Positions 3,961 through 52,913 of a DNA stretch of 64,000 nt are shown piece after piece. The stretch spans positions 3,410,001 through 3,474,000 of the forward strand of contig OZ024756.1 of the NCBI GenBank assembly GCA_964016885.1. Reading direction: 5' to 3'. A model generated the notes under the pieces. It saw only the letters and a program-made list of their open reading frames with translations, was not told where the DNA came from and searched no databases. The stretch's first letter is position 1; each line of letters opens with the position of its first letter. Source of the DNA: Eledone cirrhosa. Its lineage: Eukaryota. The position numbers were made by a program, and so were the translations under genes.

Positions 3961-4148
3961 AAAATGCTCTGTAGTCTACATAAAGCACTCTCTTTTCCTT
4001 TACCTTTCTTACGGATATACTTCATTTATATATATAAATATATATATATATATATATATATATATATATATATATATATATATATATATATATATATATA
4101 TATATATACGATATTAATAAATGGAAACTATATTTATAAAACCATATT

Positions 4149-4213
4149 TCTTCCATTATACATATTTCAGGGATACCAACTTAAAATATGGTATGCCTTC
4201 ATCAGACAAAATA
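4149..4213 (-). ncRNA. Type I hammerhead ribozyme motif (family A)
   Basis: - strand: tattttgt CTGATGA aggcatacca..tggtatccct GAAA tatgtata atggaaga; core intact, stem I weakened. Confidence 0.6.
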
Positions 4214-4301
4214 CAATATATAAACAGTTTTATAAATAATTTTAACGTACCCTATTAAATGCAACCATTAATATTTTTGGAAGCTGTCTGGATATATATT
4301 G

Positions 4302-4366
4302 TATTTTGTCTCATGAAGGCATACCATATTTTAATTTGGTATCCCTGAAATATGTATAATGAAATA
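4302..4366 (+). ncRNA. Hammerhead motif with mutated core (CTCATGA), probably inactive
   Basis: Same fold as the other family A copies but G5 is changed to C. Confidence 0.55.
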
Positions 4367-5994
4367 AATATGGTTTTATAAATATAGTTTCCATTTCTTA
4401 ATATCGTACATCTACTCCAAAAACTTGTCGAGTGCTTTATATCAGTTATAAAAATATTTACTTCTTGTATCCCAACAATTTTAAATAGAACTTTTGCATA
4501 TATATATATAAATATATATATATATATATATATATATATATATATATAATTGTATATATGTATGTGTATATGTATATATATATATAGATTTATTTATAGA
4601 TTTATACTCACACACACACACACAAACACACACACACGTATATATATATATATATATGTATATATATTTGCATTTAAATATACACATATTTTTAATATCC
4701 AGCGAATATATATAACTATGCAATATGTATGTATATAAAGTCTTGTGTATAGTCGTATATTCTTTGGAATTATTGATGCACGTTTATATATATATATATA
4801 TATAATTAAAAAGACTGCAGGCGCACGGATGTTCAGTTATGTGCAATCATACAAACATCAGCACATGAATACACACATACACACGCACACACACAAAGAC
4901 ACACACGCACGCACACACTGGATCAGGGATATGGACATCATTGGAAATATATATATGTATCTATTCATATACATATATATATATATATATATATATATAG
5001 AGAGAGAGAGAGAGAGAGAGAGAGAGAGAGAGAAGAGAGAGAGATATATATATGTGTGCGTGTGTGTGTGTGTGTTTACCATTTATGTAAATATTTTCTA
5101 ATTTATTATACTATATTATATATATATATATATATATATAAAGAATGAATAATAACAGGTAGACATCATAAAAAGGTAGTTTATTCCGTGTGCTTACAAG
5201 TGTTTCCACGGTGGTACTGCAGCCTAGTTCCGCTACGTATATTGTTATACTTAGAGAGGGACATATTTTTTCTTATATACATAATATATATATATAGAAT
5301 AATATATATATATTTATATATTATATATATATTTATATATATACATATATATATGTAATGCATTTTATATATATAATATATATTATGCATATAATATATA
5401 TTATATATAACATATATATATGGTATATATATAGAACTATATATAGTATATATATAAAAAAAATATATAGTATATATATATAAAATATATATATGTGTAT
5501 ATATATAAGATATATATATGTATATATATATACAAACTTAAATATATAATGCACATTCATATACACGCATATGCACATTTTATATGAAAATATATATGTG
5601 TGGGTATAATATCTGTATACATATATATATATACATATATACATATATATATATATATACACATATATAATATATATATATATATATATATATATACACA
5701 CACACACATATATATATATATATATATATATATATATGTCTGTATAATATCTGTATACATATATTTATATATACATATATATATACATATATATATATAT
5801 ATATATATATATACATATATATATATATATATATATATACATATATATATATATATATATATATATATATATATATATATATATATATGTCTGTATAATA
5901 TCTGTATACATATATTTATATATCCATATAATATATATATATATACATACATTTTATATATATATATATATATATATATATATATATATATATA

Positions 5995-6278
5995 GGAACC
6001 ATTAATTTAGTCCAGAATTACTCAATACTTAGGGTAGTGGAGTGGGTAATAGGAACAAGTGAGACCCCGACGGCTGAAGAGGTCACAGAGTGTGTGACGA
6101 AAGGACTATGACTATATATAAACAACTATCTGGTTGTGGAACCAACCATCCAACCAGAAATTTATAAGTTTGTAAATTTGTAAATTCATAAATTTATAAA
6201 TATATAATAAATTGAAGTGAAAGCAACTGGTGCGTGTGTTTCTTATTGGCAACATGACCCTTCCAAAGTATAACAATA
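5995..6278. mobile_element. Chimera: family C fragment (-) joined to Penelope pLTR 3' end (+)
   Basis: 6020-6077 matches family C (13228-13285); 6074-6278 matches the reverse complement of 61113-61302. Confidence 0.8.
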
Positions 6279-6464
6279 TAGATATATATATATATACATA
6301 TAATATATATAATATATAATAGATATATACATATACGTATAATATATATAAATTATATATATATAAATTATATATATATATATAGATATTATATATATAA
6401 TATATATGTATATATAATATACATATATATATAATATATATAATATATATAATATATATGTATA

Positions 6465-7107
6465 TATTCTCGTAAACCACCCATCCAACTTCTGAGTAAG
6501 TTTCTTGGTCAGTGTTCAAGTCTCAGACCCGTACCTGCTGCGCAGACTCTACTACATAAATGAAGAGGCGGATCTTCAGGTCTTTACGAGTTCCGACTGC
6601 CACACAGGTCTCAAGCAGTGGCCACCCGCCCAGGTTTTCTCTCCCTCTTAACCAAATCATCTTCCGTATTACTAATCTTTGCTCCCAAATACAGGAAGAC
6701 CTCAACTAATTCCAGCGGCTTCCGCCCGCATTAGTAATCTCCTCAGATGGTGGATGGGTGCTCCATGAGAATGCTGAGGATGGCTCTGAACATAAATCAG
6801 TATACACTGAGGATGAACATGCCAGAGCTGTATGGGAGCCGATCCAAAAGTCAGCTCAAAGAGAGACAGAGGAGACTGAGTTTAGCTGGACATGCTCACC
6901 GACATCCAGAGTTGACACTGCACTCTGTGCTCCTGTGGGAGACCCTGCATCGACACACCGGAAGCGAAAGACAATGTTAACGTATGTTGATGCCCTAAGG
7001 ACAGACACTGGTCTGATGGAGACGCAGGACATGGAAGAGGTGATGAGGGACAGAGACCGCTGGAGAGAACTCGTCCATGGATCTCGGAAATTTTACCCGC
7101 CCTAGAT
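6465..7107 (+). mobile_element. Decayed RTE-clade LINE 3' fragment with inverted 5' segment
   Basis: + part: [45 protein letters not shown]; - part: LKIRLF..VES..SET*TLTKKLTQKLDGWFTRI; typical RTE C-terminal motifs. Confidence 0.75.
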
Positions 7108-7114
7108 AGATATG

Positions 7115-51297: not shown

Positions 51298-51331
51298 CTT
51301 AACGTTTCGGACGCTAATCCTTCATCAGAAG
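51298..51331 (-). ncRNA. Minimal Penelope-type hammerhead motif
   Basis: ctt CTGATGA a gga-ttagcg-tcc GAAA CG TT^ aag; palindromic ACGT stem III. Confidence 0.65.
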
Positions 51332-51439
51332 AAAGAATGAGAAATAAGTTAGATTGAAGGGACGGGCGGGTTGGAATTGGAAAAAAAATATCTTTAGATA
51401 TATATGTCTTCATATATGTCAGAATGGATGCAGTAAATA

Positions 51440-51602
51440 CCAGTTAGACCATTACTCACCAGAGTACTCGATACTTGGAGTAGTAGAGTGTGATATGATA
51501 CTTTCGGAACCCCGACGCCTGAACTCCTACCGTTTCAACACGTATCTCAGAACTAGCTGTTGAAATGGCAGAAGCTCAGGCGTAGGGGCTCCGAATCCTT
51601 CA
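51440..51602. mobile_element. Diverged family C inverted element
   Basis: gagtactcgatacttggagtagtagagtg..cccgacgcctga..cgtttc / gaaatggc..tcaggcgtagggg. Confidence 0.6.
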
Positions 51603-51619
51603 TATATAATATATTATAA

Positions 51620-52440
51620 TACTAGCAGCAGTACCCAGCGTTGCCTGGTAGGTAAAATAGGTGTTGATCTTAGCGACTGTTTCTCGATGACTCATCTATG
51701 GCCACTCACAGGCCATGCGGGGGAGGGTGGTGATGACCTCTATCACTGTGAAACGCGGGTGACTGACGAAGGGGCATGCTGGGAGAAGGAGGTAATGACC
51801 TCTAACACTAAGCCAAATTTCCTCACGCTACTTGATTGGAAACCGATGAATTCTCAAATACACAACTAAAAGCTCACACGACGTCAGAGGCCATCGTTTT
51901 GCCTTTGACCATCTATAAGATGTGCAATGATAGGTTCTATCGTAGTATAAAAGTTGAACCAAATAAATTGATTTGTGTGTGAGGTGGAGCCGAAGTTTCT
52001 AATTTGAACGAAATCGTTTGAAAAATGTGGGAGCTAGAGCCGAGAAGGCAGAAATTTGAGCGAAAAGGTGGTATTTTCGAATATTTAAGCGGCTGCTTAA
52101 ATATTCCAAAATTCCAAAATGTAAAGCCACATTAAGACGTAAAATAATCAGATCTAGCGTAGTGGAAAATTTGAACAAAGTAGTTTGATTAATGTGGGAG
52201 CTAAAGCCGAATAAGTGGAAATTTGAGTCTAAAAGTGGTATATTTGAATATTTAAGCCGCTGCCACGCCGTCTCTGAACAACAAATGCAAAATATAAAGG
52301 CATTACAGGATGTGCAATGATAAATTCTATTTTAACATTTGAACGAAATCGGTGGCAAAATGTGGGAGCTAGAGCCAAAAATCTTATTTTTCAATATCTA
52401 AAAAAAGGTGACCCCTTTCGATTTTTATCTGCAGAATGAC
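51620..52440 (-). mobile_element. Helitron-like non-autonomous element (3' end at left)
   Basis: - strand ends ccag-gcaacg-ctgg hairpin then CTAG|T; three internal ~165-bp repeats aatttgaac.aa.t.g...aatgtgggagcta.agcc. Confidence 0.6.
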
Positions 52441-52442
52441 GC

Positions 52443-52620
52443 GATAAGGATAAATATATATCAAATATATAAGAACCGTAGAGCAAAGATTTATTAAAAT
52501 AACAGATTAAAGTTTAAGCAAAGAATCGCTGCCTTCACCCTTAACGGGATCTTCTGAAGATCCCGTTAAGGGTGAACGCAGCGATTCTTTGCTTAAACTT
52601 TACTGTTATTTTAATAAATA
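52443..52620. mobile_element. Family F snap-back element centred in a CTGAAGA motif
   Basis: ttaacgggatcttc-t-gaagatcccgttaa, 1-nt loop. Confidence 0.8.
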
Positions 52621-52676
52621 AATAAATAAATATATATATATATATATATATATATATATATATATATATATATATA

Positions 52677-52913
52677 TGCAAAAGTTCTATTTAAATTGTT
52701 GGGATACAACAAGCAAATATTTTTATAACTGATATAAAGCACTCGACAAGTATTTGGAGTAAATATACGATATTAACAAATGGAAACTATATTTATAAAA
52801 CCATATTTATTTTATTATACATATTTCAAGGATACCATGTTAAATTATGGTATGCCTTCATCAGACAAAATACAATTTATACCAGTTTTATAAATAAGCA
52901 TTGACGTACCCTT
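52677..52913 (-). mobile_element. Family A element, single long arm
   Basis: Reverse complement of 13870-14098. Confidence 0.85.
52808..52872 (-). ncRNA. Type I hammerhead motif (family A), intact
   Basis: Identical to 13761-13825. Confidence 0.75.

Follow-up and report, generated by a model that had tools for sequence, protein, structure and literature searches.

Background

The closest described counterparts of the repeats considered here are the pseudo-long terminal repeats (pLTRs) of Penelope-like elements (PLEs), in which hammerhead ribozymes, according to PMC4209133, are mostly solitary or lie on opposite strands at a distance of 100-700 bp. In published PLE insertions, the pLTRs are inverted head-to-head and a tail is optional (PMC3846280, PMC8557442), and PMC11167929 reports two internal starts for the reverse transcriptase (RT), cutting of AT-rich DNA and extension of both strands. 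Retrozymes, defined by head-to-tail tandem repeats in PMC7229834, are reported to derive from PLE pLTRs (bioRxiv 10.64898/2026.07.22.740005). In Octopus vulgaris, 190 PLE families are given as making up 6.83% of the assembly (PMC13282606), while in the giant squid Rfam hammerhead matches are recorded to number 235 (PMC6962438). Here, we describe a repeat family bearing a type I hammerhead motif in a 64,000-nucleotide stretch of the genome of Eledone cirrhosa (contig OZ024756.1, positions 3,410,001 to 3,474,000; hereafter the window), which is AT-rich animal DNA with many (TA)n tracts. The family comprises ten arms (single copies or halves of inverted pairs) at seven loci, L1-L7, with 1,882 bp in total, and these arms are, on balance, probably pLTR-only insertions made by an autonomous PLE located elsewhere in the genome.

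A type I hammerhead motif in a dispersed repeat family

The core pattern CTGANGA-N4-34-GAAA is found 13 times in the window as against 0.73 expected (100 shuffles, largest count 3), with six of the 13 matches belonging to the L1-L7 family. A three-stem type I descriptor is passed by seven sites in the window, all of them in this family; five have an intact core and two a mutated one (Table 1), and intact-core matches were absent from all 30 shuffles. A looser descriptor returned the same five intact sites along with two minimal hammerheads of another family (shuffle mean 0.02, n=100), while a covariance model built from eight arms recovered those eight and partial copies at 37759 (+) and 39665 (+) at E<0.001 (10 of its 15 hits). 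The type I hammerhead repeat is thus confirmed as real, and the hammerhead core attributed to these copies in an earlier sequence-only reading of the window is borne out, five of the ten arms being intact. That reading had counted at least eight copies plus partials: eight and the two partials are indeed recovered by the model, but the ten arms occupy only seven loci, and the supposed full motif copy at 38546 (-), i.e., L5, has a stem I of only ~3 bp and is rejected by the descriptor. The core matches at 23144, 40424 and 47017 likewise did not pass the descriptor and were rejected.

Stem I spans 8 bp in four of the intact arms and 6 bp in the fifth. In the L2 long arm, the predicted fold consists of an 8-bp stem I, the core, a 10-pair stem II that contains a C-C mismatch, GAAA and the helix III region, an 8-base self-complementary stretch which is perfect in L3 and the L4 short arm. 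The descriptor predicts cleavage at an AUA site, after 13968 in the L2 long arm and after 36784 in L3, the same cuts as had been claimed. An Rfam hammerhead search, which had been proposed as a check, was negative: the family is absent at E<=10 from both 13700-14110 (8 matches) and 36690-36830 (3 matches), and window-wide no hammerhead appears among the 150 of 547 matches listed, which hold only hairpin noise.

Inspection of stem II across the copies shows A-U/G-C alternation at one pair and G-C/G-U/A-U at another, and two stem pairs change on both sides among the six distinct sequences. In the catalytic register of this stem, 95.9% of the cells are paired (as high in 6 of 500 shuffles) with a covariation score of 0.194 (24 of 500), as compared with 92.9% (137 of 500) for a rival register that pairs A9. 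The compensatory stem II changes claimed earlier are therefore as described, with modest support from these values; since the six sequences are mutually related, the apparent covariation is thin, and suggestive only. Further, of the 79 frequent differences in public reads 40 are listed, 14 of which fall within the hammerhead: two at N7, three in the loop, four that keep a pair, two that unpair the top of stem II, two that create an A-A mismatch and one with no listed partner. None of these 14 affects an invariant core base, which points to selection in the source element.

Ends, targets and inverted pairs

The arms fall into two subfamilies (L1, L2, L5 and L7 versus L3, L4 and L6), as had been proposed. 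Their 3' ends take one of two positions ~90 nt apart, with five arms ending short and five long, and all ten reach (TA)n. The claimed insertion into (TA)n accordingly holds for every 3' end, but not for the 5' sides of the copies at 36659 (L3) and 39622 (L6), where such a tract is absent. L1, L2 and L4 are head-to-head inverted pairs, and in all three a short arm is combined with a long one, with 95-98% identity within a pair as against 84-93% between the three loci. The arms overlap at the pair junctions by 4, 4 and 0 nt in L1, L2 and L4, respectively, with a 6-nt complementary stretch at L4. L1 and L2 have both breakpoints in common with the tails swapped, and the upstream sequence there is complementary to the -22 region.

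Table 1. Arms of the hammerhead repeat family, a related fragment and the Penelope-like open reading frame in the window; 5' ends are approximate and in nucleotides relative to the core
Feature	Position	Strand	5' end	Core and predicted cut	Other features
L1 short arm	4109..4291	-	-86	intact core 4205, cut after 4157	6-bp stem I; (TA)n follows the short 3' end
L1 long arm	4288..4497	+	-22	core mutant CTCATGA at 4310	90-nt tail; head-to-head with L1 short arm
L2 short arm	13721..13838	-	-22	intact core 13817, cut after 13769	
L2 long arm	13835..14097	+	-85	intact core 13920-13926, AUA ends 13968	stem I 13912-13919/13969-13976; stem II 13927-13956; GAAA 13957-13960; tail 14008-14097
L3 solo long copy	36659..36929	+	-81	intact core 36740, cut after 36784	second subfamily; perfectly palindromic helix III
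L4 short arm	37604..37771	-	-71	core mutant GTGATGA at 37700	second subfamily
L4 long arm	37772..37950	+	inside core		head-to-head with L4 short arm
L5 solo short copy	38505..38608	-	-5	CTGAAGA core 38603	(TA)n cuts off stem I; stem II A-A mismatch
L6 solo short copy	39622..39766	+	-78		second subfamily; upstream region kept; internal deletion of stem I and core
L7 solo long copy	52678..52918	-	~-55	intact core 52864, cut after 52816	(TA)n on both sides
Degenerate tail-only piece	12908..12984	+			preceded by (TA)n; match of 69%, TA included
Penelope-like ORF, 5'-incomplete	61515..63353	-			RT, CX4CX2C linker, GIY-YIG; 612-aa open frame

The longest single arms measure 263-271 bp, and the GC content of the repeats is low (19-27%); of the ~240-390 bp given by the sequence-only reading, the upper value corresponds to an inverted pair. 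The copies contain no open reading frame (ORF), as had been stated, and every ATG frame is interrupted within the long arms. None of the nine neighbouring arm pairs in the window is head-to-tail. The copy at 39690 (+), earlier listed as partial, is the internally deleted L6 and not simply a 5' partial. In DNA of 75% AT, the invariant TATA-like motif found 24-28 nt ahead of the core was not taken to be a promoter; a sigma-70 promoter scan is irrelevant for an animal; the stop-ended peptides encoded by the upstream 20-30 nt were of insufficient length to be used; and a likeness of the region upstream of L3 to the hammerhead at 51305 (11 of 12 bases) was dropped at E=1.1.

Abundance in public reads

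Parts of the stretch are contained in 13 of the 17 public runs listed; four runs were aligned, with X6 and X8-X14, whose shares were small, left out. The family is present at very high copy number, with 5,480 matching contigs in run X1 and 33,059 of 12,467,656 reads (0.27%) in run X15. Assuming a genome of ~2.8 Gb, the size of that of O. vulgaris, this corresponds to a copy number of the order of 10^4, a rough estimate because X15 is a reduced-representation library. The depth in X1 declines from the 3' to the 5' end (2.79 million, 661k and 31k, the last drop occurring across the upstream 60 nt) on account of truncation and subfamily divergence. In X15, 4,759 reads pass from the short 3' end into (TA)n. 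The L2 junction itself is spanned by no listed read piece; other opposite-strand joints are present. Additionally, a joint of short arm and tail that has lost the core (13784-14027) reaches a depth of 675 in X1, which greatly exceeds that of the pieces with the lowest depth, and some rearranged units may themselves be multicopy.

Comparison with described systems

The metazoan PLE minimal hammerheads described in PMC4209133 have in common with the L1-L7 motif the type I arrangement, a long helix II and a tiny palindromic helix III, as well as the occurrence as dispersed singles and opposite-strand pairs and a predicted dependence on dimers. Relative to that description, the L1-L7 motif differs in a helix I of 8 bp rather than 4-5, the AUA site and the C-C mismatch of stem II. 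It also lacks the extra base between 9 and 10.1 of the minimal consensus, and, in place of G10.1-C11.1, its first stem II pair is A-U (four) or G-U (two), directly after A9. With the endonuclease-bearing (EN+) PLEs, namely Penelope/Poseidon, Neptune and Nematis, this family shares inverted pLTRs arranged head-to-head, an optional 3' tail on a single arm, truncated 5' ends, insertion into AT-rich or (TA)n DNA and a repeat of ~200-270 bp; it departs from their accounts in PMC3846280, PMC8557442 and PMC11167929 in its ~90-nt tail, in having no ORF start and in that no linked ORF was found. Animal non-LTR retrozymes, as presented in PMC7229834 and bioRxiv 10.64898/2026.07.22.740005, resemble it as ORF-less units of 170-400 nt with low GC, a type I motif and a proposed PLE origin or mobilisation. 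Unlike these, the L1-L7 family has no head-to-tail tandem in the window, and the ribozyme would be hidden within a long hairpin formed by its inverted pairs.

Origin of the repeats

The fixed ends, (TA)n targets and inverted pairs match the published anatomy of PLEs, and hence the arms are best explained as pLTR-only insertions by an autonomous PLE elsewhere in the genome, a reading to which we give somewhat better than even credence. The PLE ORF and the further PLE-type hammerheads in the window count in its favor, as does the better fit of the copies to the catalytic register of stem II. The link to the Penelope machinery drawn by the sequence-only reading is thus supported, and pLTR pieces of an autonomous element, which it had itself named as the case that removes novelty, are the likeliest source. 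The observed fold, ends, targets, pair structure and high copy number could then arise as follows. A PLE protein would nick AT-rich DNA and its RT would start at either of two internal pLTR sites, giving the short and long 3' ends; nicking, the two RT starts and the inverted pLTRs are features drawn from PMC11167929, PMC3846280 and PMC8557442. We further infer that the complementary DNA (cDNA) would end within ~90 nt upstream of the core, either by truncation or because the 5' end of the RNA is reached with the upstream pLTR as template, and that both target strands would be primed, the two cDNAs being joined via a few complementary bases to yield inverted pairs. Alternatively, the junctions might have formed by self-priming on an antisense template, as proposed in PMC3846280.

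Several observations weigh against a PLE parent. None was found joined to an L1-L7 pLTR in the window: a profile of 100 PLE relatives matched only the ORF in Table 1, and the six frames upstream of L3 and L6 gave no credible Pfam match (one at E=0.33 was ignored). The 5' ends of five of the ten arms lie at -70 to -90, with no arm extending further upstream than ~90 nt, a boundary at which L3 and L6 also stop matching each other, and 13839-13840 is the start of three listed contig pieces, which come from two organisms; a defined short element would be equally consistent with this. The tail of ~90 nt compares with 30-40 in published accounts, the closing pair of stem II departs from the PLE norm, and five of the 14 listed read differences break a stem II pair or have no listed partner. 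Since no ATG frame runs through the long arms, the Penelope/Poseidon layout, in which the ORF starts in the pLTR, is absent. Exact-pattern scans of viral, metagenome and prokaryote contigs did not find the L1-L7 pattern.

The upstream boundary makes a self-propagating ORF-less family possible, i.e., a SINE-like (short interspersed nuclear element-like) solo-pLTR unit of ~270-280 bp with its own 5' end, copied in trans by a PLE protein with the same enzymes and insertion steps as above, except that the template would be the short unit itself. This can be entertained as a distinctly less probable account, in which the repeats would form a very high-copy octopod family with a fixed 5' end, an unusually long tail of 90 nt and a hammerhead that is atypical in its 8-bp helix I and its R-U closing pair. 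It is favored by the steep fall in X1 depth over the upstream 60 nt, by a 7-base motif that L3 and a loose end in X7, from another organism, carry at matching upstream positions before differing beyond it, and by the non-autonomous pLTR-forming PLE derivatives reported in Chlamydomonas (PMC8557442). However, a lone copy would hardly dimerise, and conservation of the core across subfamilies is then harder to explain; the L1 and L2 breakpoints are explicable by a built-in complementary site of 4-7 bases rather than a start site, the depth would also fall with upstream subfamily divergence, and contig starts can mark a variant. As for a tRNA-like SINE head, the window contains no tRNA gene, a search that degenerate heads could escape.

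PLE-type mobilisation is common to both of these accounts and to a third, in which the family is a true non-LTR retrozyme: head-to-tail arrays elsewhere would produce self-cleaving multimers and circles, and the ten arms would be dispersed monomers. The ~270-bp unit, its GC content and the type I hammerhead fit PMC7229834, the published share of monomers varies between 0 and 1, and retrozymes are reported to match PLE pLTRs (bioRxiv 10.64898/2026.07.22.740005). Against this stand the lack of head-to-tail neighbours, the absence of a same-strand joint of long 3' end to 5' end among the 15 of 60 read joints listed, and the inverted pairs and optional tail, which are marks of PLE insertion; this origin is accordingly unlikely. 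The label "retrozyme-like" in the sequence-only reading, which overlooked the inverted pairs, the optional tail and the PLE ORF, hence fails in this window. By far the least probable is a fold-back element, similar to miniature inverted-repeat transposable elements, or an assembly artefact with a chance hammerhead look-alike. The window does contain several near-perfect palindromes, the Rfam search was negative and the motifs fold only modestly better than shuffles (see below), but such an origin is opposed by the full three-stem geometry seen in none of 30 shuffles, the solo state of four of the seven loci, the 2-5% difference between arms, and the pair-keeping variants and opposite-strand joints in raw reads.

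Predicted ribozyme activity

Self-cleavage of the RNA is predicted to be weak. In the four arms computed, the active fold of the monomer is less stable than the minimum by 7.6-10.2 kcal/mol, and helix III forms a self-duplex of only -2.2 to -3.2 kcal/mol. Isolated motifs compared with shuffles have folding z-scores of -0.5 to -2.5, only modestly better. Read-through of the three inverted pairs gives predicted hairpins of >100 bp at -152 to -162 kcal/mol with the motif buried. The earlier suggestion that the palindromic helix III is suited to dimers is supported by its 8-base self-complementary stretch. Cervera and de la Pena (PMC4209133) report no cleavage for a single minimal motif and low cleavage for dimers, while the motif of an Anolis PLE is reported by Frangieh et al. 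(PMC11167929) to cleave only with protein and to be dispensable for insertion in vitro. If the arms derive from an autonomous PLE, the parent RNA is predicted to carry a dimer-type hammerhead, which could be active there only as a dimer or with the help of protein and would be mostly silent in the present copies.

Other elements in the window

The Penelope-like ORF matches RT (E 7.5e-5) and GIY-YIG (E 2.9e-4) in Pfam, both below curated cut-offs, and the best of its 138 hits is an Octopus vulgaris protein with 64% identity; its CX4CX2C linker is tied to Neptune and Nematis PLEs in PMC8557442. The element spans 61100-63430 (-) and carries a separate hammerhead-like motif at 61302, while a short copy of its pLTR at 6074-6270 (+) begins at the core, so that it has long and short copies in the same pattern as the L1-L7 family. 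Since its pLTR and hammerhead are unrelated to those of L1-L7 (only low-complexity matches between the pLTRs), it was rejected as the parent; it shows the kind of enzyme available. A third hammerhead family, with the canonical minimal PLE motif without loop 3, is represented by 51301-51328 (-) and 57782-57809 (-), which are 70% alike. At 12631-12714 (-), a weak model match (E 0.005) with a CTGATGA box, a possible stem II and a broken GAAA box is perhaps a decayed hammerhead of another family.

Fold-back repeats lie at 3771-3953, 11441-11564, 13265-13364, 14144-14255, 37147-37513, 39841-40140, 50803-51182 and 60564-61073; most adjoin (TA)n and some are 97-100% perfect, and other families inserted in inverted orientation, or effects of the assembly, could account for them. 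GC-richer hairpin-forming repeats within (TA)n (13185-13390, 36958-37105, 38015-38149, 40397-40573 and 51426-51608) form a family that adjoins L3 and L4, and one copy yields the chance core match at 40424. A SINE-like repeat of ~180 bp has ~12 copies (20850-21040, 24020-24130, 30543-30694, 31440-31590, 36076-36254, 38617-38697, 40628-40803, 44008-44160, 50442-50621, 56327-56509, 58140-58325 and 63434-63629). The window also contains an L1/Tx1-like long interspersed nuclear element (LINE) at 24473-29850 (-) with two intact-looking ORFs of 642 aa and 1150 aa, the latter with endonuclease, RT and zf-RVT, a broken RT-encoding LINE at 45286-47700 (-) split by TA expansions, and a tandem array at 32019-34069 with a period of 31/62 bp.

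Implications

Neither the L1-L7 family nor an octopus hammerhead family is described in the literature searched, although the O. vulgaris transposable element library (Zenodo), Repbase, Dfam or preprint supplements may hold it. Hammerheads at PLE ends have already been published, and the L1-L7 repeats likely add a cephalopod-type family, with a motif missed by Rfam, to the known link between Penelope elements and hammerheads. The hairpins formed by read-through of the inverted pairs might be a source of double-stranded RNA. If the solo-pLTR account is true, the short-plus-long pairs would directly record, in the genome, that both strands are primed from two RT starts. Should the short-plus-long rule hold genome-wide, thousands of copies could test how PLE insertion is completed, a step given as unvalidated in PMC11167929, and would also tell whether a solo pLTR is a dead by-product or marks a step toward retrozymes.

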